From an uncultured Candidatus Saccharibacteria bacterium (GTDB taxonomy: Bacteria > Patescibacteriota > Saccharimonadia > Saccharimonadales > SZUA-47): a DNA stretch of 64,000 nucleotides. Both the position numbers and the translations under genes were made by a program. Where the stretch lies: assembly GCA_964536485.1 (NCBI GenBank), contig CAZHXX010000007.1, positions 1,937 through 65,936 of the forward strand. Direction: 5' to 3'. Below are positions 5,585-39,045 of this stretch, piece after piece. Within the stretch, counting starts at the first letter, position 1; each line of letters starts with the position of its first letter. The notes under the pieces are model-generated. The model did not search any database. It was not told where the DNA came from and was given only the letters and a program-made list of their open reading frames with translations.

Positions 5585-5635
5585 AAGGAGCCTGTTGATT
5601 CGTCATGAAACACTAGGCTCCTTTTGCTTTGTTTG
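5585..5635 (+). terminator. intrinsic terminator after the pilin gene
   Basis: AAGGAGCCT (5585-5593) pairs with AGGCTCCTT (5615-5623), followed by a T-rich tract. Confidence 0.55.
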
Positions 5636-5649
5636 TTACCATTAGAGTA

Positions 5650-6456: not shown

Positions 6457-6498
6457 AAATACAGAGGTTAAAAATAATGCTTATGGTATACTGAGTCT

Positions 6499-7802: not shown

Positions 7803-8455
7803 GCAGGCAACATAAGAACGGGTTTACTATTATTGAGCTGATGATAGCGACAACAGTATTTTCGCTTGTTTTGATGGTGTGTCTCGGCGGGATTATGCAG
7901 ATAACAAAAATGTATTACCGTGCGGTGACGCAAACCAAAACAAGAGAAGCTACTCGTTCAGTGGTAGATGAAATTGCTGAAGCGATTCGTTTTTCGAACC
8001 AAGATATCATACTTGCCCCAGGAGTCGCCGGCCCGCAAATTGCTGTGGGTAATACGACGACAAGCTATATCTGTATCGGTCAGCGACGATATACGTATGC
8101 TATAGACAGGCAAGTGAAAAGCTCGCCACAGGCAAATACGAAACAACAGCGACATGCGCTTTGGCTTGACCAGCCAACAACATGTAACGGGGCAAGTGAC
8201 CTGACCCAGGTATCCCCGAGCGCGGACGGTAAAAGCTTGTTGGGCGAGAACATGCGTCTCTACGAATTCAGCGTGAAATTGGTTGACCCAGTTGAACGTA
8301 TTTATGAAATACGTGTTGGAGTGGCATATGGAGATGAAGATTTGTTGCGGGTAAAAACAACTGATGCACGTCAGCTGACCTGCGAAGGAGCTTTTGTCGG
8401 AGTAGAGTTCTGCGCCACGACAAACTTCTTGGTAACGGTGCAAAAGAGGCTATAA
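7799..8455 (+). CDS. minor pilin-like protein
   Basis: Prepilin signal HKNG|FTIIELMIATTVFSLVL. 4-nt overlap with the upstream gene. Confidence 0.7.
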   Translation: MSRQHKNGFTIIELMIATTVFSLVLMVCLGGIMQITKMYYRAVTQTKTREATRSVVDEIAEAIRFSNQDIILAPGVAGPQIAVGNTTTSYICIGQRRYTYAIDRQVKSSPQANTKQQRHALWLDQPTTCNGASDLTQVSPSADGKSLLGENMRLYEFSVKLVDPVERIYEIRVGVAYGDEDLLRVKTTDARQLTCEGAFVGVEFCATTNFLVTVQKRL

Positions 8456-8456
8456 T

Positions 8457-9476
8457 ATGCTTATGACAAAACGTACCCACACGCAAGAACAAGGCTTCAT
8501 CGCTATTGTTGTGGCTGCTCTTATCATGGTTATTTTGTCGCTCATTACGATTGGCTTTACACGTATGATGCAACGAGAACAGCAACAAGCGCTAGACAGG
8601 CAACTGACACGACAGGCACTTTATGCTGCGGAGTCGGGTATTAATGATGTCTATGAAGGCTTGCGCCAAGGCACACTAACAGAGATAGAAAAAACAGATT
8701 GTGATGTTGGAGACCTCCCAAATGATGGGGTTATTAGTGATAGCACCAATATTGCTTACACTTGCGCTTTGTATGACAAAACACCAGCTCAGCTTGCGTA
8801 CAGCATTAGCACGTCCGATTCTAAGATATCTCCTCTGATAACAGAGAGTGGTCGCAACTTCTCGACGATAACTATTCAGTGGGGGCAAGAAAAAGGACTC
8901 AACAATGTCGCAACGCTTCCTGATTGTGGCTCGGCAGGGATTTTCCCGCGTTCTCGTGCAGGGAATGTGCCACTTTTGAAGGTAGATTTTACTAACACGT
9001 CGACACTGAGCAGAGATAGCCTTATTAACTCTACTGACTATCTCTATGTTTCTCCCTGCAAAGGAGCTGGTACTACTACTTATCGCTACGTTGGGGGAGC
9101 AAAGGGGACGGTCGTAGGGGTGAGTTGCAACGCAAGCGCAACGCTTCCATGTTCGCTGACTATTAATGGGCTCGCATCAAATCGTTACGTTGCCCGAATA
9201 CACAGTGTCTATGACAGCTCGCAGGTAGTCATCGATGGTTCTGAGCAGTTGGGCGGGGGTGCCACAGGCCCTGTAGAGTTTGCTCAATCACAGACAAGCA
9301 TTGACGTGACCGCTCGGGCAACCGATGTCGTGAGAAGATTGCGCGTGTCTATCCCTCTTGGCCAGCCAGATAACCCACCTGAGTCGGTGTTTCAGTCTTT
9401 TGACGGCGTATGTAAGCTTTTGTCTATAGACACAGTAAGCTCTCCAGCACGCATTACCGACGACTGTACGTACTAA
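8457..9476 (+). CDS. PilX-like minor pilin / pilus tip-associated protein
   Basis: N-terminus QEQGFIAIVVAALIMVILSLITIGF...ALYAAESG resembles a PilX_N-type hydrophobic segment, with no Glu5. Confidence 0.55.
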   Translation: MLMTKRTHTQEQGFIAIVVAALIMVILSLITIGFTRMMQREQQQALDRQLTRQALYAAESGINDVYEGLRQGTLTEIEKTDCDVGDLPNDGVISDSTNIAYTCALYDKTPAQLAYSISTSDSKISPLITESGRNFSTITIQWGQEKGLNNVATLPDCGSAGIFPRSRAGNVPLLKVDFTNTSTLSRDSLINSTDYLYVSPCKGAGTTTYRYVGGAKGTVVGVSCNASATLPCSLTINGLASNRYVARIHSVYDSSQVVIDGSEQLGGGATGPVEFAQSQTSIDVTARATDVVRRLRVSIPLGQPDNPPESVFQSFDGVCKLLSIDTVSSPARITDDCTY

Positions 9477-9485
9477 GAAGCGCGA

Positions 9486-10418
9486 CTACTGCGAGGTATC
9501 GGGCTCTTCGTGTGAGCGATGAAATTTTTGGTGTACCGCTTTGAGATGTGGGTCGGTAACGTGCGTATATATTTGGGTTGTCGATATGTTGCTATGGCCA
9601 AGCATTGCTTGCACCGAACGTAAGTCTGCGCCGTTCATAAGTAAATCTGTGGCAAAGCTATGGCGAAGGGTGTGCGGACTGGCATGTTTTGTGATCCCGG
9701 CAAGGAGGGCGTAGCGCGCAACCAGGCGTTGGACACTGCGCGCGGTGAGGCGGTAGTAATTGCCGGAAACTGAAACTTGCTTCGTGCCACTATAACGAAT
9801 GAAGAGAGGGGCACTATTGTCTTGCCGTTTATCGAGGTACTGCTGGACCCACCAGGCCGCAGCGTCGCTTATAAAGATAGGCCTGTCTTTTTGCCCCTTA
9901 CCGCGCACCATGAATTCTTTACGTTTGAGGTTGATGTGGTCTTTGTTCAAGCCCACAAGCTCTGATACACGTAAGCCACTAGAGAAGAGAAGCTCTAAGA
10001 TCGCGCGGTCGCGAAGCCCCTGCAAGGTCTCTAGCTTTGGTCCTGCAAAGAGTCGCTCAAGCTCTTCTTGGTTGAGGAAAGTTACTTGTTTGCGGGTGGC
10101 TTTAGCAAGCTCTATTTTGTCTGCAGAGATAACTTGCATGTCACGTTTGGTACAGAATTTTACAAAACTACGGAGTGCTATGAGGTGATAGTTGAGGGTA
10201 TTTTTTTGTAGCTCATCCGAAGTATTTGTCCCAAGCCGGTTGAGCCAGAGACGCCATTTTCTGATAAGCTCGGCGTCTATGTCAGTGACTTGTATATCAC
10301 CTGCAAAGTCTATGAGACGAGTGAGGTAGTGGTCGTAGTTCTGGATGGTTTTTTGGGAACGACCTTGTTCTATTTCGAGATATTCTAGAAAATCTGTTTT
10401 TGTTTTTGAAAAGAGCAT
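9486..10418 (-). CDS. tyrosine recombinase XerC/XerD family
   Basis: C-terminal catalytic region HTLRHSFATDLLMNGADLRSVQAMLGHSNISTTQIYTHV plus an N-terminal SAM-like core-binding domain. Confidence 0.85.
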   Translation of the reverse strand: MLFSKTKTDFLEYLEIEQGRSQKTIQNYDHYLTRLIDFAGDIQVTDIDAELIRKWRLWLNRLGTNTSDELQKNTLNYHLIALRSFVKFCTKRDMQVISADKIELAKATRKQVTFLNQEELERLFAGPKLETLQGLRDRAILELLFSSGLRVSELVGLNKDHINLKRKEFMVRGKGQKDRPIFISDAAAWWVQQYLDKRQDNSAPLFIRYSGTKQVSVSGNYYRLTARSVQRLVARYALLAGITKHASPHTLRHSFATDLLMNGADLRSVQAMLGHSNISTTQIYTHVTDPHLKAVHQKFHRSHEEPDTSQ

Positions 10419-13030: not shown

Positions 13031-13572
13031 TCTCGCTTCATTTTCGGCAGTGCTTATCAGCACTTTGCACGAGTTGCAGTGGGCGATGCCTGCCCCCACC
13101 CAGCCATACTTTTGTTTGCAGGTGCAAAAGTATGCAAAAACCCCGCAGCATGCAAGAAAAGCACGATTGGCTTCTTTACAGAAATGAAGCGTTCCTTGCG
13201 GAACGCTCTAAAGAGCGGTCAGAATAGTTACTGAAAGAGAGTATTCTGACAAGTCCTCGGAAATGACTCCCTTCATTTCTGCAAAGAAGCCATCGGTTTT
13301 CTTGCGGTGCTGGAGAGCTACAGAGCTACTGTAGCCTAACCAGCCTTTAACAATAAGACTGATGCCATACAGAGAAATGACAACGAATCATTTCCGAGGA
13401 CTAGTCAAAAGTCTTCTTATTTAATAACTACTTTTGACCGCTTGTGTTCCGCAAGGAACGCTGTCATTTCTCTGTATGGCAATCATGTTCTTATTGTAGG
13501 CTGCGGGGCGTTTTGGGTACTTTTGGACCTGTAGCTAAAAGTACCGCTGGGTTAAAGGGCAGCAAAGCCCTT
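13031..13572 (+). repeat. structured repeat locus R1: inverted dimer of two repeat units (13031-13325 forward, 13338-13572 reverse)
   Basis: Central hairpin GCTACAG-agcta-CTGTAGC at 13317-13337. Each arm folds into its own long branched hairpin. Homologous to loci at 17.6, 32.3, 34.2, 37.7 and 38.8 kb. Confidence 0.85.
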
Positions 13573-13690
13573 TTTCTTGATGAAGCTGACAACAGCTTTT
13601 CACGGGGTCTTGTAATTAACACCTTAGGATGGTACTATTATTCGAGTTTCAAGATGTAGTTTCTGTACTATATCTCGCAACAATAAACGC

Positions 13691-17518: not shown

Positions 17519-17612
17519 CGGGCTTTTTCCCTATGACTACTCTCATCTCGTAGCTTCTACGGGCTTTTCTTGTACGCATCCACCTCGTTTTTAATTGCAA
17601 AAACCTAAAAAA

Positions 17613-18142
17613 GGGCTTTGCTGCCCTTTGACCCTGCGGTACTTTTAGCTTCAGGTCCAAAAGTACCCAAAACGCCCCGCACCCAGGATAAAAAACACAA
17701 CTCATGCCAGATACCAGTATCTTCCGCGCTGTGAGGACGACAAGCGCCCAAAAGTAGTTATCTAAAAGAAGACTTTTGGGTTAAGCTCATTGCTCGACTC
17801 GTAAGACACTGATTGCCATGAATCAGTTTTTTAGAGGGTGTGTAGCTACAGTAGCCACATCAGCACCGCAAGAAAACCGATGGCTTCTTTACAGAAATGA
17901 AGAGAATCATTTCCGAGGACTTGTCAGAATACTCTCTTTCAGTAACTATTCTGACCGCTCTTTAGAGCGTTCCGCAAGGAACGCTTCATTTCTGTAAAGA
18001 AGCCAATCGTGCTTTTCTTGCATGCTGCAGGGTTTTTGCTTACTTTTGCACCTGGAGGTAAAAGTAAGGCTGGGTGTGGGCAGGCATCGCCCACTGCAAC
18101 TCGTGCAAAGTGCTGAAAGCACTGCCGAAAATGAGGTGAGAA
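17613..18142 (-). repeat. structured repeat locus R2: inverted dimer, reverse complement of R1
   Basis: 17860-18142 is the near-identical reverse complement of 13031-13325. 17613-17690 is the reverse complement of 13500-13572. Confidence 0.85.
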
Positions 18143-20865: not shown

Positions 20866-20938
20866 CGCTCATGCTTGCGTTTTTAGGTTCGCAGTTACCG
20901 AGCAGTAAGTATAGTCGAGACATGTTACTATTTTTGTA

Positions 20939-21511
20939 ATGATGAATGCTATTATTTTGCACGGAAAGCCTGATAGGGAAGAATACTACGACCTGACGAT
21001 GCCAAGCATGAGTAACGCGCACTGGATACCGTGGCTACAGGCACAACTTTTGAAAAAAGATATTTTTGCAGTAACTCCAGAAGTACCGTTTGCATTTGAG
21101 CCAGACTGGGAGCTGTGGTGTAAAGAAGTAGAACGTTTTGAAATTGGACCCGATACAATGATTGTTGGGCATAGCTGTGGCGGGGGTTTTTGGCTACGCT
21201 GGTTGAGTGAGCACAAAGATATTTCAGTTGGGAAAGTTGTCTTGGTGGCGCCTTCACTTGGTTTGAGTTGGGAAGACAAGGGAAAAAAATTCTTTCAGAA
21301 TTTTGTGCTAGACCCTGAGCTTGTAAGTAGAGCTAAAGGGCTCACTATTTTTCACTCTGATGATGATAATGAAAGCATAGTTCAAGCGGTTGAGAAAATA
21401 AGCGCACAAGTACCGGGAATAAAATTTAGGGAATTTCATCTAAAGCATTTCACAATTAATGACCTGAAGACTCCTGAGTTCCCTGAACTTCTTAGTGCGC
21501 TTGTATATTAA
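20939..21511 (+). CDS. alpha/beta hydrolase, YdeN/RBBP9-like (paralogue of 16958-17518)
   Basis: ILHGKP..., GHSCGG elbow, IFHSDDDNES. Confidence 0.5.
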   Translation: MMNAIILHGKPDREEYYDLTMPSMSNAHWIPWLQAQLLKKDIFAVTPEVPFAFEPDWELWCKEVERFEIGPDTMIVGHSCGGGFWLRWLSEHKDISVGKVVLVAPSLGLSWEDKGKKFFQNFVLDPELVSRAKGLTIFHSDDDNESIVQAVEKISAQVPGIKFREFHLKHFTINDLKTPEFPELLSALVY

Positions 21512-23794: not shown

Positions 23795-24715
23795 TTACTG
23801 AGCTTTTGGAGGCGGTGGGAGTTCACCAAAAGCGGAGGCTTGCTTAGGACGCGCAATGCGTACTTCTGGCACATCGTAGGTTACTTCATTGGTGACTGTA
23901 GCATTTTCTAGCCCATTCATGATTACCCAGGATTCAGATTTTTGACCATTTTTTGTGTATTTTCCGTCTCCACCTTCAATTGCAATAACTCCGTCATAGC
24001 CGCTACTCACTACATATCCTGCAAAGAGGTCGCCCGTTTGCATGAGCACTTCTTTTAAATTACTCGTGTCAAGCTGTGTATAAAATCTGTATGGACCATA
24101 CTCCATAGGTTTACCGTTACCTCGAATGTAAGCAATTTTAGCTTGAACGAGCTGTATGTACGTTGTCGTATGAGAAAGGGGTAATTCTGAATCATTCTGC
24201 GGTTCGCTTTCAATCCACCGTTCCAAGTAATCGGCAAAGTCACTCATAATGGGCATAAGATTTTCTGGCTTACGGAGATCCAAAAAAGAAACATCTTGTA
24301 GTAGAAACTCGTATACAACAGGCGTCTTCGATTCTTCTTGAATTATACCGTCTTTAAGCTCTCTTTGGTCTGGTACGCGTTCGCGTGAATAGCCGAAAGC
24401 AAGTTCTGGTGAGCTCGTAGCATAAAACCCTAACCCAATCGTGTCATCTTCTGCGCGCTCAAACTTAGTAATTCCCTTTGTTGCGCTGCCATGGTACAAA
24501 GTAATCTCGTCGAAATGAATGCTTCGTCCATCTTCACTTACCTCACCCTGTTGTTCAGGCTTGCTATGAGTAATATCTGCATTTAAAGCCCATTCTCCAA
24601 TTAGCTGCCCAACCCTAAATTGCGCTACAGCATCTACATAATCGTGATACTCATGTTCGCCAGCAGGTAGTAAAACAGATTTTAGTGGTGTTTTTGTTTC
24701 GGGCACTGTATACAT
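23795..24715 (-). CDS. hypothetical protein with ADP-ribosyltransferase-like (H-Y-E) signature
   Basis: The ordered motifs LYHGS ... GLGFYATSS ... VVYEF resemble the H-Y-E ART/PARP-like core. Motif-level evidence only. Confidence 0.3.
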   Translation of the reverse strand: MYTVPETKTPLKSVLLPAGEHEYHDYVDAVAQFRVGQLIGEWALNADITHSKPEQQGEVSEDGRSIHFDEITLYHGSATKGITKFERAEDDTIGLGFYATSSPELAFGYSRERVPDQRELKDGIIQEESKTPVVYEFLLQDVSFLDLRKPENLMPIMSDFADYLERWIESEPQNDSELPLSHTTTYIQLVQAKIAYIRGNGKPMEYGPYRFYTQLDTSNLKEVLMQTGDLFAGYVVSSGYDGVIAIEGGDGKYTKNGQKSESWVIMNGLENATVTNEVTYDVPEVRIARPKQASAFGELPPPPKAQ

Positions 24716-24961: not shown

Positions 24962-25603
24962 ATGTACTTAAATACATCTAGCATAAAAAATAAAAAAATG
25001 ATAATAACCAGAACACAAGACACAATGACTATTAGATCTATTGAACAGGTGAAGCTGTTTATGTCGATTTTGTTTATGTCTTTAGGTATTCTTAGCCTTA
25101 TTTCACCTTTTTTGTTTCGAGATGTGTCAGCCTGGGCATCTTTAATTGGAATTATGGTTCTGTTACCAGTAACCATAATGCTTTTAGAAGTGACTTATAC
25201 TCGGATTGAGTTGCATAAAATTGGACCGTCAAAGGTAACTGTAAAAAATCTTCGACACGAAGATAACTTTGAATTTACTATTTCGGACATGAAGAGCGTG
25301 ATTAAGGAAGAATATGTTGGGTTTCTCGGCAACGGTTCAAATGAACCGAATGACTTACTGATTTTAACTTTCAAAAACCGCGAAAATTTAGAATTAGCGT
25401 CGACAAGAGGGGCAGTGTCTTGGCCAAGATCTTTCCGCCCATATCGTAAAGAAGCAAAACAAATAGCAGAGTTTGCTGGAGTGCAAGTGGAGGTTAAAGA
25501 GATAGATATATTACAGGACATTAAAAGTGTAATTGAGAACACTATCCCTGAAAAAATGCCTGACGACAAATCCGACGGAGTAACTGATATAAAGAACTTA
25601 TAA
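24962..25603 (+). CDS. hypothetical membrane protein
   Basis: Two TM helices near the N-terminus. Start uncertain (24962, 24998 or 25025). Confidence 0.5.
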   Translation: MYLNTSSIKNKKMIITRTQDTMTIRSIEQVKLFMSILFMSLGILSLISPFLFRDVSAWASLIGIMVLLPVTIMLLEVTYTRIELHKIGPSKVTVKNLRHEDNFEFTISDMKSVIKEEYVGFLGNGSNEPNDLLILTFKNRENLELASTRGAVSWPRSFRPYRKEAKQIAEFAGVQVEVKEIDILQDIKSVIENTIPEKMPDDKSDGVTDIKNL

Positions 25604-25735: not shown

Positions 25736-26548
25736 ATGGATGATTATTTGAAAGAACTTGAGATTGCGAAGCGGCTGGCGAAGGACGCGGGCGTAATTAT
25801 GAACAAATATTTCAGTAGTGGTGCAGACGGTGCACAGATAAAGAATGATAAAACCATCGTTACAAAGGCTGATACTGAAATAAACACGCATGTTATTGCG
25901 GTGTTGGCGACCGAGACACCAAGCTATAGCGTTTGGGGCGAAGAAGAGAAATCAATCAAGCAGGATGTGCCATACACATGGGTGTGTGACCCGGTTGATG
26001 GCACGATGCCGTTTGCTAAGGGGCTACCTATATCTACCTTCTCGGTTGCCTTAGTAGATTCGGAAGGAGTGAGCGTGCTTGGTGTGGTGTATGACCCATT
26101 CACGGACAAGCTGTATGAAGCAGTCCGGGGTAGTGGCGCTTTTATGAATGGCATGCCAATTCGTGTCTCAGATAATGATACGCTCGATGGCGCTTACATT
26201 GACGAAGAACTGTGGTTTAACAATGAGGAGCAGGTAACTTTTGATACCCCCAAAGATGCGCTAAATAAATTGGGTGCGAAAGTAACGACTCAGTGTTCTG
26301 CTGTAATCATGGGATGCATGGTTGCGAGCGGAGCATACGAAGCGATGTTATTTGGACAGGGTAAACCTGAGGATATTGCTGCGCTATCTGTCATAGTGAC
26401 CGAGGCGGGCGGAAAGGTGACGGACCTGTTTGGAAATGAACAAAGGTATGACACGAATATTAGAGGAGCTGTAGTTTCCAACGACTACTTGCACGAAAAG
26501 CTTGTAGAGCTTACGTCAAAAATGAACTACACCAGCAAATACCTCTAA
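25736..26548 (+). CDS. inositol monophosphatase family protein (SuhB-like)
   Basis: WVCDPVDGT metal-binding motif and EE...KSI region, 270 aa. The last 8 codons come from junction repeat A. Confidence 0.8.
   Translation: MDDYLKELEIAKRLAKDAGVIMNKYFSSGADGAQIKNDKTIVTKADTEINTHVIAVLATETPSYSVWGEEEKSIKQDVPYTWVCDPVDGTMPFAKGLPISTFSVALVDSEGVSVLGVVYDPFTDKLYEAVRGSGAFMNGMPIRVSDNDTLDGAYIDEELWFNNEEQVTFDTPKDALNKLGAKVTTQCSAVIMGCMVASGAYEAMLFGQGKPEDIAALSVIVTEAGGKVTDLFGNEQRYDTNIRGAVVSNDYLHEKLVELTSKMNYTSKYL
26517..26544 (+). repeat. cassette-junction direct repeat, copy A
   Basis: AAAATGAACTACACCAGCAAATACCT matches the consensus AAAATGAACNNCACCAGCAAAWAYCT. Confidence 0.7.
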
Positions 26549-26602
26549 ACCCGCATTCTTCTCATGCTTGCTAGTAATAGCTTATGATGGTATTTTCAAG
26601 AG

Positions 26603-27088
26603 ATGAAACACTTAGAGGCATTTTTGGCAATGGAAGGCATGCTAGAAGAAAGGCCTGTTGAAGCTGTGAGACTTGCAACAAGTGCGTTATTGGCAATAAG
26701 TTTTATGCGTAGTGAAACCCCGTTTAAAACAAAAAAAGGTTTGCCAGTGTATGAGCATAAAATACCACTTGAACCTTATAGTGCTAATTTAAGAGTAAAA
26801 CCACATCCTAGTGACTTTTTAAGTCTTGAAAAACCAGAAGAGAGAGTCTTGGCCGCGGATTTACCTGCGTCTCTTACTTATTTTTATAGAAGCTATCTAG
26901 GCGCTTCATTCTCTTTTGAAAGGGACACGGGGATTGTCTCCGTAGAATTTGGCAAGGGGAGTTATTTTAGTTCAACAGGTTCTGCATCTGCGACAGAGCA
27001 AGGAATATGCTCAATTAGGAATATTTGGCAAGACTTACACGCTCCAACAATTATGTATGTACAGCAAGTAGCGAACCAACTCGGTTAG
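26603..27088 (+). CDS. hypothetical protein
   Basis: 161-aa ORF. Confidence 0.5.
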   Translation: MKHLEAFLAMEGMLEERPVEAVRLATSALLAISFMRSETPFKTKKGLPVYEHKIPLEPYSANLRVKPHPSDFLSLEKPEERVLAADLPASLTYFYRSYLGASFSFERDTGIVSVEFGKGSYFSSTGSASATEQGICSIRNIWQDLHAPTIMYVQQVANQLG

Positions 27089-27549
27089 TCTTCTTTTGCT
27101 TTGGCTTCTAGTTCTGCTTCCAGTATCGCTTTTGCTTCTTCAAAAGTGGGGGTTGTACCGACAGTTTTGAAGACTCCGTTGCAGGCTATGCATCTCTTGA
27201 AGCTTGCACAGATGACATCAAACTCTTCTTCTGGGACGCCAAGTTTCATTAATTTAGCAAAGAGTGCGTCTGGGTCAAAGCGGTCTTGCCGATGGTATTC
27301 AGGGCGATCTGTTAGCTCTGCGTCACGCTTAAGACCATTGAGCTCTATGGCAGAATGCGAAAACCCATCTACCAAGTGAAATTGTTGGTCGTTAGCTATA
27401 CGAGGGAGGAAAGGATTTATGTGTGCCGGCATTTCGCAACCATCGCACCCTTCAAGACCGAACTCAGTCCTGCTTGAAAAGATTACTAAAAACCTGTTCT
27501 TTACATCTGGTTCTAAGCGACGTAAATATTCAGTCTCTGGGTCTACCAT
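27085..27549 (-). CDS. hypothetical protein
   Basis: 154-aa ORF with a convergent 4-nt overlap with 26603-27088. Confidence 0.5.
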   Translation of the reverse strand: MVDPETEYLRRLEPDVKNRFLVIFSSRTEFGLEGCDGCEMPAHINPFLPRIANDQQFHLVDGFSHSAIELNGLKRDAELTDRPEYHRQDRFDPDALFAKLMKLGVPEEEFDVICASFKRCIACNGVFKTVGTTPTFEEAKAILEAELEAKAKED

Positions 27550-27605
27550 ACTGTTGGCTATTTAACACTCGATTCATCCCCAAAGCAACCTTAAGCAAGT
27601 TTTCG

Positions 27606-28283
27606 CTACCCAATCATGACTTGCCAGCGTACGGCGTGTCTTATAGTCGGGACTTTGGCTGGTTGCGCGTAGTGGGGCAGAGAGGGTGGCATGATGACAA
27701 GTTTATTAACCGGAATTTCTTCTTTAGATAATTGGTCCGCAACAGCTTCTTTTAGGTGAGTTCTTGGTTCGCCCTGGAAATCCTGCGGAGTTGTTGGTCC
27801 TTGAAGTGTCATCGTTGGCAGAGAGTCACACGCAAAGCCAATAGCTTTTAGCGCTGTCCCATCTTCTCCATTCAAAAATGTTGCTTCAACGTTTGTGCCG
27901 CCCGGGGCTGTGCCGTCTAAGTGAGGAAGCCAAAAAGTACCCACATCGTGTGTGCCTAGTTTGCTATAAAAATGGTCAAAATATATTCGAGCTTGTTCAT
28001 AATTATCCTGTCCAAATATCTCTTCTATCGTTTTACAAAACAAAGCATGAAGAGGTGCGTATGCACTGTTTGAGCCAGCAAAAACAGCTTCCTTACCAGA
28101 AGCTTTAATCGTTCTTTCTCTATCGTCAACAAACGATGTGGCAAGGCCTTGTAAATCGACACTATCAGCAACAACAATGTCTTTTCGGGGCAACGCTAAA
28201 GCCTCAGCGGAGTAAGGGTTGTCTAAAAACTCAGTGAAAATATTATGCGTTGGAGCGGATAAGATATTAGCCATAAAACCCAA
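27606..28283 (-). CDS. hypothetical protein (HxD motif WLPHLDG)
   Basis: 225-aa ORF. The start is probably the ATG at 28274 (MANILS). Confidence 0.5.
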   Translation of the reverse strand: MGFMANILSAPTHNIFTEFLDNPYSAEALALPRKDIVVADSVDLQGLATSFVDDRERTIKASGKEAVFAGSNSAYAPLHALFCKTIEEIFGQDNYEQARIYFDHFYSKLGTHDVGTFWLPHLDGTAPGGTNVEATFLNGEDGTALKAIGFACDSLPTMTLQGPTTPQDFQGEPRTHLKEAVADQLSKEEIPVNKLVIMPPSLPHYAQPAKVPTIRHAVRWQVMIG

Positions 28284-28329
28284 GGATAATAGCTAGACCC
28301 CTAGAAAGCAACCATAAGCAAAACCAGAG

Positions 28330-28364
28330 CTCAGCACCAAAATGAACCCCACCAGCAAAAACCT
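28330..28364 (+). repeat. cassette-junction direct repeat, copy B
   Basis: CTCAGCACCAAAATGAACCCCACCAGCAAAAACCT. Confidence 0.7.
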
Positions 28365-28395
28365 GTTTAAGTCAGGCCATCTCTATATTCTCAAG

Positions 28396-28424
28396 TTGAC
28401 AAAAATAATTTATTGAAGTATAGT
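28396..28424 (+). promoter_or_regulatory. sigma70-type promoter of 28433-28816 (near-leaderless)
   Basis: TTGACA (28396-28401), 17-nt spacer, TATAGT (28419-28424). The ATG lies only 8 nt downstream of the -10. Confidence 0.5.
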
Positions 28425-28432
28425 AATGATTC

Positions 28433-28816
28433 ATGAGTGATACAAATACTTGTTTTGGATGTGAATTCGAGCCAAAAATTGCAGAAATTGGCATGTTTGC
28501 AAGAGTGACACGAGAAATCGTAGAGTTGAAGGTTCCTGGTGTTATCGATGCCACATTGGATGTTGTTATAGAATCAGACAAGGTGGAAGCAAACCCAGCG
28601 GTTGACCAGAAGGTTTCTGGCATAATAGACCTCACCGCACAGATGAGTAGTGTCGCAAATTCGGTTGATACTGAAATTTTAGATGAAATTGATGCTATTT
28701 TGTGTGCAAGAACTTGCACTGAAGAGACCAAAGCGGAGTCGTTATCGGGTTGCCCAAAGCTCGACTTGCTAATGCCCAAAATGTGGGACCTCGCAACCAA
28801 AATCCAACTCCCTTAA
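28433..28816 (+). CDS. hypothetical acidic protein
   Basis: 127-aa ORF that is the only gene between junction repeats B and C. Confidence 0.5.
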   Translation: MSDTNTCFGCEFEPKIAEIGMFARVTREIVELKVPGVIDATLDVVIESDKVEANPAVDQKVSGIIDLTAQMSSVANSVDTEILDEIDAILCARTCTEETKAESLSGCPKLDLLMPKMWDLATKIQLP

Positions 28817-28847
28817 TTAATAATTCGCCAAGGTAATGTAGTAGATA

Positions 28848-28882
28848 CTCACCTCCAAAATGAACCACACCAGCAAATATCT
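28848..28882 (+). repeat. cassette-junction direct repeat, copy C
   Basis: CTCACCTCCAAAATGAACCACACCAGCAAATATCT. Confidence 0.7.
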
Positions 28883-28984
28883 TTAACTCTGCCAAAACTA
28901 AATAACAAAGAATTACAGATGAAAAGGTAAAAAATTATGAGCGTATTGTCTTGACTACGAATAAAATAAGCTAGAATTAATGCG

Positions 28985-29830
28985 ATGACCGATAACTCAA
29001 AAGATAACATGCAACTTGCAATTAATGAAGCTAAGAAGGCTCCTGAAGGTAGTCCCAGGGTTGGCACCGTTATTGTAAAAAACGGAAGGGTTTTAGCTAA
29101 GGCATACAGAGGTAAATACGGAGAGCACCTACACGCGGAGCACTGTGCATTAATAGAGGCAAAAAACGCAGGAACAAACATAAGAGGTGCTACTGTATAC
29201 ACTACATTAGAGCCTTGTAACGAAGTTAGGAGTGCATCTAAGGTTCCGTGTGCTGACCAGCTTATAGAAGCAGGAGTAGCTGAAGTTTATATAGGTAGTT
29301 ATGATCGAAATCCTGTTGTTTATCGTCAAGGCTGGAGAAGACTAAGAGATGCCGGCTTGAAGCTTTACGATTTTGATGAACAGCACCGTCAGCAGGTTAA
29401 ATATTTAAACAGTCGCTCGGATGGTAATTTTCTTTACAGTGTTGGGAAAAGTGGAGGCGCAAAGTTTGACTACATGCAAAATGGAGGAAAATTTGAGGTT
29501 TTTTATGATGAGTCTAAAGCTATTGTTTTTAAAACTAGATGGAGCCAAAAAGGCCCACGTTCTATTTATGCATATGGTGGACAGCCTGGGATCGTTTCTC
29601 TAGCCAAATACGCGGTAAATTTTGAGGAGATTGATGATCCAGACGCTTACGACTATGAAGGTAGTTCAGTATCCGGTTATGAAGGAGACATAGTCATTTT
29701 CAGGAATGCAGAAGGGCATGCTCTAGTTAAGATTTGTGAAGTTCAAGTCGGAGCACCCTGGGACAATAAAAATACTTCGCTGAAGATTAAGTATCAACTA
29801 AGGCTTAAAGAGTCTAGTAAACAAAGCTAA
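28985..29830 (+). CDS. CMP/dCMP-type (RibD-like) zinc deaminase fused to an uncharacterised C-terminal domain
   Basis: HAEHCAL...TLEPC...PCADQLIEAGV zinc-binding signature in the first ~150 aa. The remaining ~130 aa have no recognisable motif. Confidence 0.65.
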   Translation: MTDNSKDNMQLAINEAKKAPEGSPRVGTVIVKNGRVLAKAYRGKYGEHLHAEHCALIEAKNAGTNIRGATVYTTLEPCNEVRSASKVPCADQLIEAGVAEVYIGSYDRNPVVYRQGWRRLRDAGLKLYDFDEQHRQQVKYLNSRSDGNFLYSVGKSGGAKFDYMQNGGKFEVFYDESKAIVFKTRWSQKGPRSIYAYGGQPGIVSLAKYAVNFEEIDDPDAYDYEGSSVSGYEGDIVIFRNAEGHALVKICEVQVGAPWDNKNTSLKIKYQLRLKESSKQS

Positions 29831-29860
29831 AAACTGTTAAAGATTTGCTAAGATGAAGTT

Positions 29861-30409
29861 ATGAATGCAGTATTTCTAGACCGAGATGGAACGATTAACA
29901 TTGGTATACCGAGAATCTCGAGAGTTGATAGTCCTGAAAAGGTTGAATTACTCCCGACGGTTATTGAAGCGCTTAGTCTTTTAGCGACTTTGGACTATAA
30001 AGTGTTTTTAGTGACGAATCAGGCCGGCATCGCAGAAGGTAAGATAACAGTAGAAGAATTTGAAAAGATAAACGAGCGAACCCTTGAGCTCATTAGACCA
30101 AGTGGTATAGATATAACTGAGACATACTATTGCCCGCACGGTGAACAAGACGCTTGTGAGTGTAAAAAGCCAAAACCTAAGATGCTCTTTGATGCTGCTC
30201 AAAAGTATGACTTAGACTTAGAAAATTCATTTATGATAGGAGATAGAATTTCAGACATAGACACAGGAATTAATGCTGGGACGAAGACAATCCTAGTGTT
30301 GTCTGGTGAAATAGTTGAGGCTCCGCAGGCAACTTATACAGCAAGTAATTTGCTTAAAGCAATTCAGTTCATAGCTGTAAGCAAAAACTATAACTCACCA
30401 AAAAAATGA
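29861..30409 (+). CDS. HAD-IIIA phosphatase, GmhB/histidinol-phosphatase-like
   Basis: VFLDRDGTIN motif I, VTNQAG, zinc-loop CPHGEQDACECKKPKP, GDRISD. Confidence 0.7.
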   Translation: MNAVFLDRDGTINIGIPRISRVDSPEKVELLPTVIEALSLLATLDYKVFLVTNQAGIAEGKITVEEFEKINERTLELIRPSGIDITETYYCPHGEQDACECKKPKPKMLFDAAQKYDLDLENSFMIGDRISDIDTGINAGTKTILVLSGEIVEAPQATYTASNLLKAIQFIAVSKNYNSPKK

Positions 30410-30428
30410 ACTCCACCAGCAAATACCT
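30394..30428 (+). repeat. cassette-junction direct repeat, copy D
   Basis: CTCACCAAAAAAATGAACTCCACCAGCAAATACCT. It overlaps the stop codon of 29861-30409. Confidence 0.7.
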
Positions 30429-30471: not shown

Positions 30472-31791
30472 TCAGAGAAGTTTATTCTTAGCATTTCTCC
30501 TAGTCTTATTTAGTTGTCTTGCAATAATATTAGATTCAGTTTTTTTGTAAGCACCTCGCATATAATCAGCTTTTTTCTGACCTCTCAAATGCCTTGAAAT
30601 CGTAGAAGATCGAAATGATATTGAAGCTCCGTTAAAATGAAAGCCTAAGTACTGAGGGTCTTTTCGTTTGCTCGAAACTTTATTATCAATACTTTTAGTT
30701 ATGTTCTCAAGATCCGTTTCACCTTCTATTTTACGAAAGACTTCTGTCTTTTTTAAGCTTAGTCTAAGCCCATGAGACGCCAGGGCTTTAGATATATTTA
30801 GATATACATTCTTAGATTGTCCTATTGGGCATATTATTAAAATATCGTCACTGTAACGCTGGTAAAAACCACCGAGACTTCCTACTACTACCTCTTTAGT
30901 AGCTTTATCAAACTCTGATAAATATAAATTTGCTAGTAGCCCACTGATTGGGCTTCCTTGTGGTATGCCGAACCCTGACTTATTAGTCTTGACCTCTTTT
31001 TTTAAATACTTATTATAATCACTAAGACTACAAAATTTTCTGGATTCGTCTATTTTTGTCAGGAATTTCCTTTTGTTCTTTTTGAGTATTTTAAGAGCTT
31101 CGCTATATTCAAGGTATCTATAGCGTGTAATATTTTTAAATATAACTTCATGGTCTGGATTGGCTGAAAATCCACCTTCCAATATTGAGTTCCATCTTTC
31201 GTGGAGTATTGAGTGATTCAGGTTATCGAAAAAACCTTTAACATCCAACATTATGCATTCGTATTCTGTCCTATTTCGCATTTCATCAAATGCTTCTTTC
31301 GCAAAATCAACGTTATTCTTTCCGTCAACTGATCTGTATGCAATAACATTATTTTCAAGTGATTCTTGCAATAAAAACTTCTCGTAATCTTTCTGTAATA
31401 AATACGAGTAGAAGGAAAGTATCGTCGCATCCCAATGGGAAGCATACATAATAAGCCTAGTTTTAATATGTGGAAATTTTTTCTGGCTACGCTCTCCCTT
31501 TAAAGATGAGAATTCATAGTCGTAAGGAGGCTGAACAAACCTTCTCAGTCGTTTTCCATTTTTTATAAAAGGCAGAAAACCATGACTCTCAAGTCTACCT
31601 TCTTGGCAGATAATTTCTTTTAGTTTTGCTGCTTGAGCTACATCGTTACCAATACGTGGATAGTGCAGTTTGTTATCTATATGGGGGTAGTTACGCTCGC
31701 CAATGAATTTTTTGCCAAATTTCTTATTTCCAAGCGTGGCTTTATGCTTTTGATAAACTAGCCATTCATTAAATTGAATCGTATGTCTCAT
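30472..31791 (-). CDS. stand-alone reverse transcriptase (non-group-II, non-DGR; Abi/UG/DRT-like)
   Basis: RT motifs KTRLIMYASHWD (1-2), IMLDVKGFFDNLNH (A), FGIPQGSPISGLLANLYL (B'), YQRYSDDILIICP (C), LSLKKTEVF (D/6), YLGFHFNG (7). No extra enzymatic domain. The gene is strongly AT-rich. Confidence 0.85.
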   Translation of the reverse strand: MRHTIQFNEWLVYQKHKATLGNKKFGKKFIGERNYPHIDNKLHYPRIGNDVAQAAKLKEIICQEGRLESHGFLPFIKNGKRLRRFVQPPYDYEFSSLKGERSQKKFPHIKTRLIMYASHWDATILSFYSYLLQKDYEKFLLQESLENNVIAYRSVDGKNNVDFAKEAFDEMRNRTEYECIMLDVKGFFDNLNHSILHERWNSILEGGFSANPDHEVIFKNITRYRYLEYSEALKILKKNKRKFLTKIDESRKFCSLSDYNKYLKKEVKTNKSGFGIPQGSPISGLLANLYLSEFDKATKEVVVGSLGGFYQRYSDDILIICPIGQSKNVYLNISKALASHGLRLSLKKTEVFRKIEGETDLENITKSIDNKVSSKRKDPQYLGFHFNGASISFRSSTISRHLRGQKKADYMRGAYKKTESNIIARQLNKTRRNAKNKLL

Positions 31792-32257
31792 ACAGACTTG
31801 AAACTCGACTCCTCGGTGTGGCGCAACACTTTTACATTGCTGTGAGGAGTCGATACATGCAGTAGAGCACTTGCGAAGTGGTGCAGCATAGAGCGGGGTA
31901 ATGGAAAGGTATTTTCTCCAAAGAAATTACGCCTAAGTCAATTCAATCGCGGAGATATACAATAATATCATGGGATATATTGCCATAATTACTATCGCAA
32001 ACTTCATCGTTGGTAAAGGTGAACTACTGTTGAAGTTCAAGAGTAGTTTATCTTTACGCTTGACCGCCTCTGTTAGCTTTACAAGCTTTCTCGGGCTTGA
32101 CCTATGTCCTGTCTCAGCTACTATAATGTGGATCCCGCTTCTCCGTCCACACGTACTATAAAGCTATAGTAGTGGGTTGTTGTTACCCTCAACAGTATCT
32201 TTATTATAGCAAATTTAGAATAAAAAGCTATAGCTTACTAGAATGTATCAAGTCTGT
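31792..32257 (-). ncRNA. candidate RT-associated non-coding RNA / long structured 5' leader
   Basis: No ORF on the RT strand. Bounded by a 10-nt inverted repeat at 31792-31801 and 32248-32257. Contains a 9-bp stem (31806-31814 with 31844-31852) and an 11-bp hairpin at 32022-32048. An extended -10 TGCTATAAT reads on the minus strand at 32211-32203. Confidence 0.35.
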
Positions 32258-32290
32258 CAAACTGCTAGTGCTTAATTGTTGGGTTAAATT

Positions 32291-32536
32291 TCAGCATGTA
32301 GCCTCCAGCATAAAGCAAGAAAACCGATGCCTATTACTCAAAATGCAGTGAATCATTTCCGAGGACATGTCAAAAGTCTTCTTATTCAGTAACTACTTTT
32401 GACCGCTTGCCGTCCCGCAGGAACACTACATTTTGAGTAATTGGCAGTCGCAGTTCTTCTTGCCAGCTGGCGGGGCGTTTTGGGTACTTTTGGACCTGTA
32501 GCTAAAAGTACCGCTGGGTATGGGCAGGCAAAGCCC
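32291..32536 (-). repeat. structured repeat locus R3: single unit, same strand as the RT
   Basis: Homologous to 13338-13572. It has the head hairpin GTACTTTT...AAAAGTAC, the GTCAAAAGT/ACTTTTGAC apical stem and the TCATTTCCGAGGAC motif. Confidence 0.8.
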
Positions 32537-32538
32537 AT

Positions 32539-33186
32539 TTATTTAATCCTATACTCCCTCGAAACTCCCCACCCGGAAGCCGCAACGTCCCCACGATGGG
32601 TCAAAAGTTGCATATAATGCTGAACCCGGCGTGGCGGAAGATTGAGAGCGCGAGCTATAGTGCGGTTACTCGCAGGGCTGTGAGAAGAGATAAAAGCCAA
32701 AATATCTGAAACATTTTTTTGTGCAACTGCCTGCCGAGCTTCGACGCCCTGGCGACTTAACGACGCCTGGTTTTTCTTGGCATAGAGCGAGGCGGCAGCT
32801 TTGAGTTGCGCGTCGGAAAGCTGAGAAATGTCTATCTCTGCTGCGGGTGGTGGCGGGGTGACTGGTGGTGCCGGAGCAGGGGCAGGTGGCTCCGGTGCGG
32901 GCGCCTTTATCACAGGTGCTGGTGCTGGTTCGGGAACGGTAATGGGTTCTGGACTAGGTTCGGGAATTATGACTGGTTCTGGGACAACGATTGGTTCTGG
33001 CTGGTGAGTTGGTTCAGGAGCAGGTTCTGCAGGAACAGATTCTACAGGTGCTGGCGCAGGGGACGGTATCTCTGCAGGCGGTGCAACGGGTGGTTCTGTT
33101 GCAGGAGTTTCTACTGGTGCAACTTCAACACTTGGCTCTAGTGGCGTGTCCGCTGGTGGTTCTGGAACGGGTGTTTGGTCGTCCAT
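32539..33186 (-). CDS. proline-rich protein with C-terminal winged-helix DNA-binding domain
   Basis: The N-terminal ~110 aa are P/E/A/V-rich. C-terminus is SNRTIARALNLPPRRVQHYMQLLTHRGDV. Confidence 0.55.
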   Translation of the reverse strand: MDDQTPVPEPPADTPLEPSVEVAPVETPATEPPVAPPAEIPSPAPAPVESVPAEPAPEPTHQPEPIVVPEPVIIPEPSPEPITVPEPAPAPVIKAPAPEPPAPAPAPPVTPPPPAAEIDISQLSDAQLKAAASLYAKKNQASLSRQGVEARQAVAQKNVSDILAFISSHSPASNRTIARALNLPPRRVQHYMQLLTHRGDVAASGWGVSREYRIK

Positions 33187-34081: not shown

Positions 34082-34157
34082 AGTAGGGGTAAGTATGGGC
34101 TTATGGAGAGGGCTTGTAAATAAGATTTATTGCAGAATATTCTGTACTTTTTTTGGT

Positions 34158-34385
34158 GGGCTATGCCTGCCCACACCCAGCCTTACTTTTCTCTCCAGCT
34201 AGAAAAGTAAGCAAAAGAGCCGCAGCCTACACAAAAAAGCGATGAAAATGAATCATAAATGAAACGTGCCTGCGGAACGGCAAGCGGTCAAAAGTAGTTA
34301 TTGAATAGGAAGACTTTTGACTGGTCCTCGGCAATGACTCGTTCATTTTTGTATTCCTTTTCTCGGTTTTTGCGTTTGAGGCTGG
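34158..34385 (+). repeat. structured repeat locus R4: single unit
   Basis: Head GGGCTATGCCTGCCCACACCCAGCC, hairpin TTACTTTTC...GAAAAGTAA, GCCTGCGGAACGGCAAGCGGTC, apical GTCAAAAGT/ACTTTTGAC, GTCCTCGGCAATGA. Confidence 0.8.
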
Positions 34386-37717: not shown

Positions 37718-38297
37718 TGTGGGCGATGCGCCCGAAGTCCCAAAGAAACGAGCATCCTTTTCTAGCCTCATTTTCGGCAGTACGTTCCGTACTTTGCACG
37801 AATAACAGTGGGCGATGCCTGCCCACACCCAGCCTTACTTTTGCCTGCAGGTGCAAAAGTAAGCAAAAAGTCCGCAGCATGCAAGAAAAGCACTATTGGC
37901 TCAGCTAAAGATTCTATCGTTCCTGCGGAACGGCGAGCGGCCTCGTTAGTTACTAAAGTAGAGTAACTCGGCTAGTCCTCGGAAGTGATTCAATAGAATC
38001 TCTAGCTGAGACCATCGGTTTTCTTGCGGTGCTGGAGAGCTACACGAGCTACTGTAGCCACACCAGCCTTTACCCTAAAAACCGAGAAAATGAGACAGAT
38101 GATAAAGGAGTCATTGCCGAGGACTTGTCCGGCTACTCCTTTTAAGTAACTACCCGGACCGCTCTAGCGTTCCGCAAGGCACCTTTGTCATCTGTCTGTA
38201 TTTTCATCGCTTGTTTTTGGGGAGGCTGCGGACTTTTTGCATACTTTTGAGACTGTAGTCAAAAGTATGACCGGGGTGAAGGGGTGTAACGACCCCT
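37718..38297 (+). repeat. structured repeat locus R5: inverted dimer of two diverged units
   Basis: Left unit: CATTTTCGGC-hairpin-TTGCACGA, GGGCGATGCCTGCCCACACCCAGCC, TTACTTTTG...CAAAAGTAA. Right unit (reverse): ATACTTTTGA...TCAAAAGTAT. Central hairpin GCTACACGAGCTACTGTAGC. Confidence 0.8.
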
Positions 38298-38804: not shown

Positions 38805-39045
38805 CTTTTACCAGTCGCGCTAGGTCATACTTTTGCCTGCAGGTGCAAAAGTATGCAAAAACCCCGCAGCATGCAAGAAAAGCACGATTGGCTTCTTTAC
38901 AGAAATGAAGCGTTCCTTGCGGAACGCTCTAAAGAGCGGTCAGAATAGTTACTGAAAGAGAGTATTCTGACAAGTCCTCGGAAATGACTCCCTTCATTTC
39001 TGCAAAGAAGCCATCGGTTTTCTTGCGGTGCTGATGGGCTACACG
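38805..39045 (+). repeat. structured repeat locus R6: single unit
   Basis: 38826-39031 is almost base-for-base identical to 13107-13312. Confidence 0.85.

Follow-up and report, generated by a model that had tools for sequence, protein, structure and literature searches.

Copies of a phosphatase gene's 3' end at the seams of a variable cassette stack in Saccharibacteria

We find that the four direct repeats in this 64 kb of DNA (the window), from a Saccharibacteria (CPR) MAG, are copies of the conserved 3' end of an inositol-monophosphatase-family (IMPase) gene, and that each lies at a seam in a stack of small gene cassettes, the content of which varies among close relatives. This origin, and the constraint on the core of the repeat described below, go beyond the sequence-only reading of the window, which had taken the repeats for cassette junctions next to a reverse transcriptase (RT), of the kind that successive site-specific insertions would leave, or else for a shared regulatory or processing signal. 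We tentatively favor the view, quite possible on present evidence, that the repeat is an att-like crossover site for the gain and loss of cassettes.

A repeat search of the window returned a single family of four direct copies, spaced 1820, 518 and 1546 nt apart (Table 1). The 21-nt core AAAATGAACNNCACCAGCAAA is matched exactly at 26519, 28339, 28857 and 30403, four of four on the plus strand and within 4 kb, as compared to 0.02 matches expected from shuffles, which confirms the repeats as first described; no further match was found in the 64 kb with up to three mismatches allowed, and a local-alignment scan of the window with the 75-nt consensus gave no copies beyond the same four. Copies B to D agree with copy A at 19 of the 21 core positions, the exceptions being the two variable positions (NN), and across 40 nt copy C has 95% identity with the native end of the gene in two relatives (L006/L024). 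Relative to the gene end, the repeat is ragged on its left, where homology starts anywhere from about 25 nt ahead of the 75-nt consensus to about 24 nt within it, and its right end is fixed at the stop codon. With complete genes between the copies, the spacing is not the regular one of CRISPR arrays (25-40-nt repeats, 25-75-nt spacers), and only four clustered copies in 64 kb, lacking inverted repeats, do not amount to REP or MITE dispersal. A search of three long copies for inverted repeats of 8 nt or more at 80% complementarity found none, and there was no dyad symmetry of the dif/pdif-arm type in or around the core and no hairpin, as ssDNA or RNA, on either strand of the four window copies and two from relatives (z -1.4 to +1.6; ssDNA folding MFE 0 to -7.9 kcal/mol); the repeats are thus, as had been said, neither palindromic nor CRISPR-like nor attC-like.

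Table 1. Features of the variable region and the one recombinase gene of the window
Feature	Position	Strand	Remarks
Xer-type tyrosine recombinase gene	9486-10418		only recombinase gene in the window; 16 kb from the array
IMPase-family gene, 270 aa	25736-26548	+	Pfam Inositol_P, 3e-53
Copy A (native)	26500-26544; with 3' extension 26500-26571	+	core 26519-26548 = last IMPase codons and stop
Cassette 1	26572-28319		genes 26603-27088 (+, 161 aa), 27085-27549 (-, 154 aa), 27606-28274 (-, 222/225 aa)
Copy B (non-coding)	28320-28364	+	Tyr codon TAC changed to CCC; stop absent
Cassette 2	28365-28837	+	gene for 127-aa acidic protein 28433-28816; promoter-like site 28396-28424
Copy C (non-coding)	28838-28882; annotated to 28886	+	old frame reads MNHTSKYL-stop
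Cassette 3	28887-30383	+	deaminase 28985-29830 (281 aa), HAD-IIIA phosphatase 29861-30409 (182 aa); Pfam, NCBIfam
Copy D (non-coding)	30384-30428; annotated to 30441	+	overlaps HAD stop; final copy, ahead of reverse-oriented RT
DRT2-type defence RT gene, 439 aa	30472-31791	-	last slot of variable region; PADLOC Drt2 1.1e-102, 343 bits
Non-coding leader upstream of RT, ~470 nt	31792-32260	-	no ORF; promoter-like sites
Right border of variable region	32297-32540	-	one copy of ~245-nt strongly folding dispersed element
Proline-rich wHTH gene	32539-33186	-	conserved; adjoins right-border element

The source of the repeat is the last ~30-45 nt of the IMPase gene, whose top NCBIfam match is HisN-like, under the cutoff, and whose product ends in ..KMNYTSKYL-stop; the claim that copy A supplies the last codons and stop of this gene holds. 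The NYTSKYL tail is conserved in more than 100 Saccharibacteria homologues, and the DNA beneath it is more constrained still. Among six lineages with IMPase genes ~76-96% identical in DNA, third-codon-position identity is 0.947 in the last 10 codons as compared to 0.553 gene-wide, which places that stretch at rank 1 of 262, and of 10 degenerate codons in it 8 are invariant, as compared to 15% gene-wide. When 12 non-coding copies from five genomes were each compared to the nearest native copy, mismatches came to 3% in CCAGCAAATACCTCTAA, 18% over the 13 nt that adjoin it on the left, 39% over the following 20 nt and 62% farther out, and two of these copies (L051-4 and L055U) had 0 mismatches in the 30-nt core although their left flanks have decayed. 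The synonymous freeze in a living gene, together with the near-intact state of CCAGCAAATACCTCTAA in non-coding copies, indicates that the core is a functional DNA element under nucleotide-level constraint.

The three intervals between copies (1.8, 0.5 and 1.5 kb) hold 3, 1 and 2 genes, the numbers first reported. Proteins of cassette 1 had no match in Pfam, PADLOC or NCBIfam; homologues of its 161- and 154-aa pair (47% and 40% aa identity) lie in the same plus/minus layout between two repeat copies of the relative L051, and the variable region of L055 has, at another place, a homologue of the 127-aa protein (47% aa). The 127-aa gene does have the near promoter ascribed to it, a TTGACA-17-TATAGT match ending 8 nt ahead of the ATG. 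In cassette 3, the deaminase is of the cytidine/dCMP type with an extra C-terminal domain and belongs to a rare family whose nearest named homologues (~46%) are from Actinobacteria, and the HAD stop (TGA, 30407-30409) falls inside copy D as stated. At the far side of the variable region, window positions 32530-32655 align to the relatives L024 and L026 at the equivalent position. The ~245-nt element at this border is a truly dispersed repeat of the window, distinct from the four copies.

Relatives, whose arrays were read from short metagenomic contigs, have the same element between other cassettes, and the content of five of these arrays (L025, L044, L046, L051 and L055) differs from that of the window. 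For instance, L051 has the flanks of the window on both sides (86% over 1.7 kb to the left, a match of 41 nt to the right), and the stack between them is wholly different: it holds three further copies and lacks the IMPase gene. Between L025 and L026, the IMPase proteins are 97% identical; the former carries four copies and three cassettes, with 2239 bp between the outer two 30-nt cores, and the latter a single copy, seen as a 30-nt overlap at L026 10784-10813. This difference could be a repeat-mediated deletion instead of an insertion. Where cassette homologues recur they are only 40-47% identical in amino acids as compared to 67-84% for flanking genes, as expected of a shared cassette pool. 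A motif search in genomes of 185,579 species gave one related match and 20 chance matches, the metagenome search two related contigs and IMG/VR none, and no arrays were found in more distant lineages with different gene-end DNA. The motif belongs to cassette-stack junctions and is not spread genome-wide, and the content between junctions varies, so that neither of the outcomes that would have told against the sequence-only reading, a genome-wide motif or an invariant block, was obtained. Gene-end copies at the seams of a stack that differs among close relatives lead us to regard the repeats as a recombination hotspot.

In the att-like reading that we favor, the core AAAATGAACTACACCAGCAAATACCTCTAA, the last nine codons and stop of the IMPase-family gene in one Saccharibacteria clade, would be where crossover takes place, and cassettes of one to three genes would be gained or lost through it. 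Every event would leave one copy per side, so that n cassettes carry n+1 co-oriented copies, of which the leftmost would remain a working gene end and the others would be non-coding. The order in the window would then be IMPase gene, A, cassette 1, B, cassette 2, C, cassette 3, D, with the terminal slot after D taken by a DRT2 defence module, and many cassettes would bring, or sit behind, a 3' extension AAATTTCAAAACCCCTCATGCTTGCA that supplies a -35 box to the next gene. Any given event may have been a gain or a loss. Consistent with an att site are direct repeats that reproduce the 3' end of the target gene, with the proximal copy keeping that gene intact, and a related genome with a single-copy, unoccupied site (L026 as compared to L025). 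No integrase was found within the inserted DNA, nor any recombinase domain, in the cassette proteins of the six arrays (the window and the five relatives), no Phage_integrase domain among array-flanking genes, and no integrase, transposase or relaxase in or within ~10 kb of any examined array, on short metagenomic contigs. Unlike most cores recognized by tyrosine and serine recombinases, the site has no inverted repeat, dyad symmetry or hairpin. A recombinase encoded elsewhere would presumably act on the core; the Xer-type gene is one candidate, and no link between it and the repeat was found. Of the successive site-specific insertions first proposed, the seams and the varying content stand, and the insertions may not be strictly site-specific, given the array-side lack of a recombinase, the lack of dyad symmetry and the ragged left ends.

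A serious rival, if a somewhat unlikely one, dispenses with a dedicated site and combines one-sided homologous with illegitimate recombination: relatives' DNA, once taken up, would integrate by a homologous crossover in the conserved IMPase gene and a microhomology-guided join near the recipient gene end, or redundant IMPase copies would be deleted later, and in both cases the old 3' end would be displaced downstream as a remnant, like the orphan modules at rhs, cdiA and tpsA loci. Only short remnants would survive because long duplications are lost through recombination. The ragged left ends beside a right end fixed at the stop codon are as this predicts, as are remnants reaching ~55-70 nt into the gene (L051-4, L055U) and the missing recombinase. 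So is the junction of a HisPase gene with the repeat in L025 and L044, which falls inside the microhomology AAAA.AGC and looks, from its sequence, like an illegitimate join, and type IV pilus genes at 810-9476 of the window could offer a route for DNA uptake. What this rival leaves unexplained is the synonymous freeze of the last 10 codons across six lineages, a perfect 30-nt core in non-coding remnants beside flanks with ~25-40% mismatch, and the derived variant AACCAACCAGC... shared by two L051 copies that flank one cassette, a pattern suggesting that a copy was duplicated when it had already become non-coding.

It is also conceivable, though improbable, that the main role of the repeat is regulatory, as a gene-end signal without structure, rich in C and poor in G (a Rho-type terminator or insulator), to which an upstream promoter element and -35 box for the next gene are joined, kept by selection where genes are packed, with its copies serving as passive recombination substrates. 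At least 10 copies run on to CCCTCATGCTTGCA(A/T) and end sharply after a -35-like hexamer, with a TAnnnT -10 17 nt further on, just ahead of a different gene each time; in the window, copy A is followed after its stop by the -35-containing box TCTCATGCTTGC (26560-26571), and the same box precedes a Ser_hydrolase gene at 20867. The copies rank in the top 0.6-2.3% of 61-nt windows for C-over-G skew and fold worse than shuffles, and 16 of 19 come after a forward-oriented gene. The earlier suggestion of a shared regulatory signal is compatible with the run into a -35 box in many relatives. Window copies B, C and D have no such box, and the cassettes there rely on promoters of their own, 45-70 nt farther along. 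Moreover, the core is equally conserved in native copies that no box follows (L025a, L045), base-by-base conservation is not usual for Rho-type sites, and regulation alone does not explain why copies sit at variable seams.

That the neighboring RT makes or mobilizes the cassettes, with mRNAs joined to the repeat and then retro-transferred, in line with a proposal for group IIC introns and integron attC sites, is an idea for which only proximity speaks (43 nt separate the end of copy D from the RT stop codon) and which we rate as extremely improbable. The repeats lie downstream of the RT and on the other strand, the presence in the cassettes of promoters, and of genes in both orientations, is at odds with an origin from mRNA, and the recovered sequence of the L025, L044, L046, L051 and L055 arrays has no RT, the equivalent slot in L051 being held by an unrelated, reverse-oriented 401-aa gene. 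The RT matches Drt2 (PADLOC, 1e-102); Drt2 is also its top NCBIfam match (3e-89, 300 bits), under the curated 390-bit cutoff. In characterized DRT2 systems an ncRNA lies upstream of the RT, one promoter serves both, and the RT copies this ncRNA by rolling circle into a toxic repeat gene (PMC11100668). By analogy, the leader here, which had no Rfam match, presumably holds the DRT2 ncRNA, a structured RNA expected to template a stop-free repeat ORF, and its promoter, on the side of the RT away from the repeats. With DRT2 identity, strand and position, and arrays of relatives RT-less as recovered all against it, the RT as cassette maker is close to refuted, and the RT is another cargo, a DRT2 anti-phage gene; we found nothing to suggest that it has a role in the cassettes.

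Several known systems invite comparison. The window shares with DRT2 the RT gene and its long non-coding leader, and the four repeats are no part of that system: they lie past the 3' end of the RT gene, on the opposite strand, and recur in genomes that showed no RT. Among Xer-dependent elements (Acinetobacter pdif modules, IMEX elements), short sites delimit small modules, and the host recombinase that moves them has its gene elsewhere; the window indeed has an Xer-type gene. However, dif/pdif sites span 28 bp, their two inverted 11-bp arms flank a spacer of 6-8 bp, and successive module sites point in alternate directions, whereas our element has no dyad symmetry and every copy is direct. Tandem accretion at a gene's 3' end, as for ICESt1/ICESt3 and the integrase-less, cis-mobilisable CIMEs at fda in Streptococcus thermophilus, where inner elements lack their own integrase, or at tRNA genes, likewise leaves the target's 3' end as direct repeats around and between inserts, with the leftmost copy keeping the gene intact. 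Here, the inserts are about ten times smaller, the arrays hold no remnants of integrase, excisionase or transfer genes, the L051 array exists without the target gene, and the repeat limits are ragged on the left. In the orphan arrays downstream of rhs, cdiA and tpsA genes, each cassette comes after a short copy of the upstream gene's 3' part, and growth of the arrays is attributed to homologous recombination in which the old end is displaced (tpsA: PMC3848433). The cassettes here are unrelated enzymes and defence genes, not toxin-immunity pairs, and since the repeated piece includes the stop codon, alternative protein tips are not exchanged.

There is a further likeness to integron arrays and CALINs (attC clusters without an integrase), with which our arrays share tandem 0.5-1.8-kb cassettes of one to three genes, a co-oriented site-like element at each seam, content that varies among close relatives and no recombinase inside cassettes. 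They differ in that no IntI with attI and Pc was found beside the array, the seam is conserved by sequence (the 30-nt core) and not by an attC-like imperfect inverted repeat or hairpin, the cassettes have their own promoters and mixed gene orientation, and the element comes from the 3' end of a housekeeping-type gene. We think it rather unlikely, though conceivable, that this is a new integron-like gene-capture system in one Saccharibacteria (CPR) clade, with a trans-acting recombinase in place of an array-side IntI and a non-palindromic ~30-nt site in the 3' end of a phosphatase gene. Were this true, such a system would stack, shuffle and shed promoter-bearing mini-cassettes, including DRT2 defence and nucleotide-modifying enzymes.

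A repeat search of the window returned one family, the four co-oriented direct repeats that the sequence-only reading had described (copies A to D, at the seams of cassettes 1 to 3). Their 21-nt core, AAAATGAACNNCACCAGCAAA, has 4 exact matches as compared to 0.02 predicted from shuffles, and no further match in the 64 kb with up to 3 mismatches allowed. A local-alignment scan with a 75-nt consensus likewise gave these four copies only, with no fifth copy to the right of the reverse transcriptase (RT) gene, so this DRT2-type gene is not bracketed by two copies. That first description of the region was accurate as a whole: the intervals hold 3, 1 and 2 genes by our gene calls, copy A is the end of the IMPase-like (Inositol_P-family) phosphatase gene, the HAD gene has its stop codon within copy D, the acidic protein has its own near-leaderless promoter match, and the tiny MN(Y/H)TSKYL frame is present in copy A (..NYTSKYL) and copy C (KMNHTSKYL-stop).

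Features of the variable region and its surroundings (window positions unless a related locus, L, is named)
Feature	Position	Strand	Remarks
Putative type IV pilus cluster	810-9476		probable ATPases, pilin-like genes
Xer-type tyrosine recombinase gene	9486-10418	-	directly downstream of pilus cluster
-35-containing box of the seam element, GCTCATGCTTGC	20867-20878		just upstream of Ser_hydrolase gene
Ser_hydrolase gene	20939-21511		in relatives directly before or after phosphatase gene
306-aa protein gene	23795-24715	-	weak ADP-ribosyltransferase match (ART-PolyVal, 3e-4)
213-aa membrane protein gene	24962-25603	+	
Phosphatase gene	25736-26548	+	
Copy A	26500-26544	+	keeps -35 box, 26560-26571
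Cassette 1			161 aa (+), 154 aa (-), 222 aa (-)
17-mer AAAGCAACC[T/A]TAAGCAA	27582-27598, 28305-28321		both sides of 222-aa gene
L055 alignment	28203-28321		L055 2122-2240
Copy B	28320-28364	+	former Tyr codon 28348-28350
Cassette 2			127-aa acidic protein; TTGACA-17-TATAGT match ends 8 nt before its ATG
Copy C	28838-28882	+	former Tyr codon 28866-28868
Cassette 3			deaminase (28985-29830), HAD-IIIA phosphatase
Copy D	30384-30428	+	former Tyr codon 30412-30414
Former Tyr codon, L025	8976-8978		
Former Tyr codon, L046	2719-2721		
RT gene	30472-31791	-	
Expected partner ncRNA	about 31792-32260	-	
RT with leader	30472-32260	-	
Match to L051 right flank	32303-32343		41 nt
~245-nt element	32297-32540	-	right border of cassette region
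~245-nt element, other copies	13080-13322, 13330-13574, 17609-17778, 17868-18093, 34157-34349, 37809-38044, 38828-39026		
~245-nt element, L026	22-145, 16277-16478, 17389-17508		

The repeat is a duplicate of the phosphatase gene's 3' end. This gene has its closest homologues in Candidatus Saccharibacteria MAGs, and its C-terminal tail, ..NYTSKYL, is kept in over 100 homologues from Saccharibacteria, with identities as low as 63%; in the old frame copies B and D read KMNPTSKNL.. and KMNSTSKYLK... Among six native phosphatase genes (DNA identity about 76-96%), third-codon-position identity is 0.553 overall as compared to 0.947 in the last 10 codons, which rank 1 of 262 windows, and 8/10 degenerate codons are invariant there against 15% gene-wide. 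When twelve non-coding copies were each compared with the nearest native copy, mismatches amounted to 3% in CCAGCAAATACCTCTAA, 18% in the 13 nt to its left, 39% in the next 20 nt leftward and 62% beyond, and in two long remnants (L051-4 and L055U) the core shows 0/30 mismatches where the flanks have clearly decayed. Frozen synonymous sites and intact cores in non-coding copies together show that the core is constrained as DNA or RNA, independent of coding.

We note that core changes in the non-coding copies concentrate at the former Tyr codon (TAC to CCC, CAC, TCC, TAA or TGA), and that the 9 nt before and 10 nt after it are intact in the window copies. The codon may be where crossover takes place or where a spacer lies; alternatively, the changes may reflect selection against the small MNYTSKYL frame.

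In many relatives the element runs on as AAATTTCAAAACCCCTCATGCTTGCA(A/T) and ends sharply after this -35-like hexamer, to be followed by a -10 box and then by a different gene each time; copy A keeps the -35 box and copies B, C and D are without it. The element is C-rich and G-poor. No inverted repeat was found in it, nor any fold of either strand as ssDNA, which rules out a hairpin, attC or dif structure and upholds the earlier statement that the repeats are neither palindromic nor attC/dif-like. Rfam gave no match for either the repeats or the RT leader, and an internal direct sub-repeat, ACCTC[C/T]AAA[A/T]T, was dropped since by a rough estimate it is not beyond chance.

The comparison of related loci indicates that cassette content varies among relatives and that the motif is confined to this locus, neither spread genome-wide at unrelated positions nor set in an invariant block. 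In a scan of one genome per species, 20 of 21 loci were single chance matches in unrelated phyla, so a genome-wide or cross-phylum motif was rejected; the sole related locus, L006 from Saccharibacteria, has the orthologous gene end. A metagenome scan added two related contigs, and two IMG/VR pattern scans for a phage attP gave no match and one chance match without flanking similarity. In L025 the phosphatase gene is followed by four copies that separate different cassettes, with a histidine phosphatase and with genes of 129 aa and 318 aa, and a 190-aa gene comes after the last copy; in L026 (phosphatase 97% identical in protein to that of L025) a single copy directly precedes the same 190-aa gene, and the 2239 extra bp of L025 have the 30-nt core AAAATGAACTACACCAGCAAATATCTCTAA at both ends. 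L046 holds a 236-aa gene and Ser_hydrolase between two copies, and L045, with an identical phosphatase protein, has different downstream DNA. Copies lie both upstream and downstream of a 132-aa gene plus phosphatase in L044, a 1369-bp block missing from L055, which is 97.8% identical just past it. L051 has both flanks in common with the window (left flank: 86% over 1.7 kb), and between them has three further copies, no phosphatase gene and the series HisPase; 189 aa; 160 aa and 155 aa (-); methyltransferase; 401 aa (-). Its 160/155-aa pair is homologous to the first two cassette 1 genes at 47% and 40% aa as compared to 67-84% for flanking genes, and L055 has a homologue of the window's 127-aa gene. 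Only single copies are present in more distant lineages, where the gene end has another DNA sequence. Two candidates were dropped: an apparent 190-aa versus 162-aa swap in strains with identical IMPase (P0002) was a gene-call difference with identical spacing, and the left flank of the L055 copy aligns equally well or better as extended IMPase remnant than as histidine-phosphatase remnant.

The best-supported reading, which we hold tentatively and with somewhat less than even confidence, is that of an att-like seam: crossover in the core would add and remove cassettes, each event leaving co-oriented copies at both cassette ends, with the recombinase encoded elsewhere than in the array. The successive site-specific insertions first proposed agree with junction repeats around variable cassettes, but four observations speak against a site-specific system of the classical kind: no recombinase was found in or near any array examined, the site has no dyad symmetry, the copies have ragged left ends, and the HisPase-repeat junction falls in microhomology. 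Within the window, the Xer-type gene encodes the sole recombinase seen (Phage_integrase 7e-44; XerC and XerD models about 250 bits, below cutoff). The four observations favour the main rival, which we hold with fairly low confidence, below that of the att-like seam. In it, homologous crossover in the conserved gene would have been combined with an illegitimate join, or a redundant gene copy deleted, displacing the old 3' end downstream as in rhs/cdiA/tpsA orphan arrays. This leaves unexplained the frozen synonymous sites, the perfect cores inside decayed remnants, and two L051 copies that flank a cassette and have one derived variant in common. That the element is mainly regulatory, a terminator or insulator plus promoter module, is improbable; the -35 extension and base composition are consistent with it, whereas the box-less copies and base-for-base conservation are not.

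Cassette formation driven by the RT we regard as very improbable indeed. Its matches (PADLOC Drt2 1.1e-102; top NCBIfam match Drt2, below model cutoff) identify it as a DRT2 defence RT. In characterised DRT2 the partner ncRNA is encoded upstream of the RT, shares a promoter with it and undergoes rolling-circle reverse transcription (PMC11100668), so the ncRNA would be expected on the RT's far side from the repeats. The repeats, beyond the stop codon of the RT and on the other strand, do not belong to the known DRT2 system. Since the 401-aa gene of L051 occupies the corresponding slot, DRT2 is last-slot cargo. This DRT2-type RT, here in a genome of the CPR (Saccharibacteria), has a non-coding leader of about 470 nt, and its region is low in GC, at 36% as compared to about 45% in the window.

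When the other cassettes were annotated for defence genes, the matches were weak only (TIR-TM at 1e-3; a methyltransferase resembling mad2). The deaminase carries an extra C-terminal domain and is one of a rare family, with 41 proteins at E<1e-20. Among its named homologues the nearest are from Actinobacteria (Brevibacterium, Gordonia and Dietzia, at ~46% identity). Saccharibacteria epibionts usually have Actinobacteria as hosts, which hints at host-to-epibiont transfer; as a probe of cassette mobility these homologues were dropped, the closest contigs being too short and L049 lacking the repeat. The 17-mer around the 222-aa gene may be a further seam or chance; the L055 alignment ends exactly with its second copy. 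Just upstream of the phosphatase gene, the 306-aa and 213-aa genes form the left flank of the variable region and are kept in L051 (84% and 67% aa). The whole 20.9-32.3 kb stretch is rearranged among relatives.

Separately, a ~245-nt non-coding element occurs at least 8 times in the window (71-81% identity), with some copies side by side in inverted orientation. Its fold is a long hairpin (dG -97.5 kcal/mol, z -6.5) with a terminator-like stem at its end, it shows apparent paired substitutions (GGTAC..GTACC versus CATAC..GTATG), and Rfam gave no match to it. A MITE-like palindromic element is one possible identity, and a multi-copy Saccharibacteria small RNA family is another.

Saccharibacteria are ultra-small epibionts with reduced genomes; to our knowledge few of their mobile elements have been described and their acquisition of accessory and defence genes is poorly understood. 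The locus is a compact, recurrent stacking of foreign genes behind one conserved gene end, and its seam element is under selection as DNA. In the literature searched, we came upon no account of arrays of this kind from Saccharibacteria. The closest in working are the integron/CALIN array and tandem accretion of integrase-less elements at a gene 3' end, but the locus has neither the attC hairpin nor the adjacent IntI of integrons, nor the integrase inside the insert that helps define an integrative element. If a dedicated recombinase uses the seam element, this would be a new site-specific gene-capture system without integron hairpin logic; if not, it would show clearly how gene arrays are built in nature by one-sided recombination. 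Either way, the 30-nt core offers a practical marker for variable cargo, including defence systems, in these genomes.
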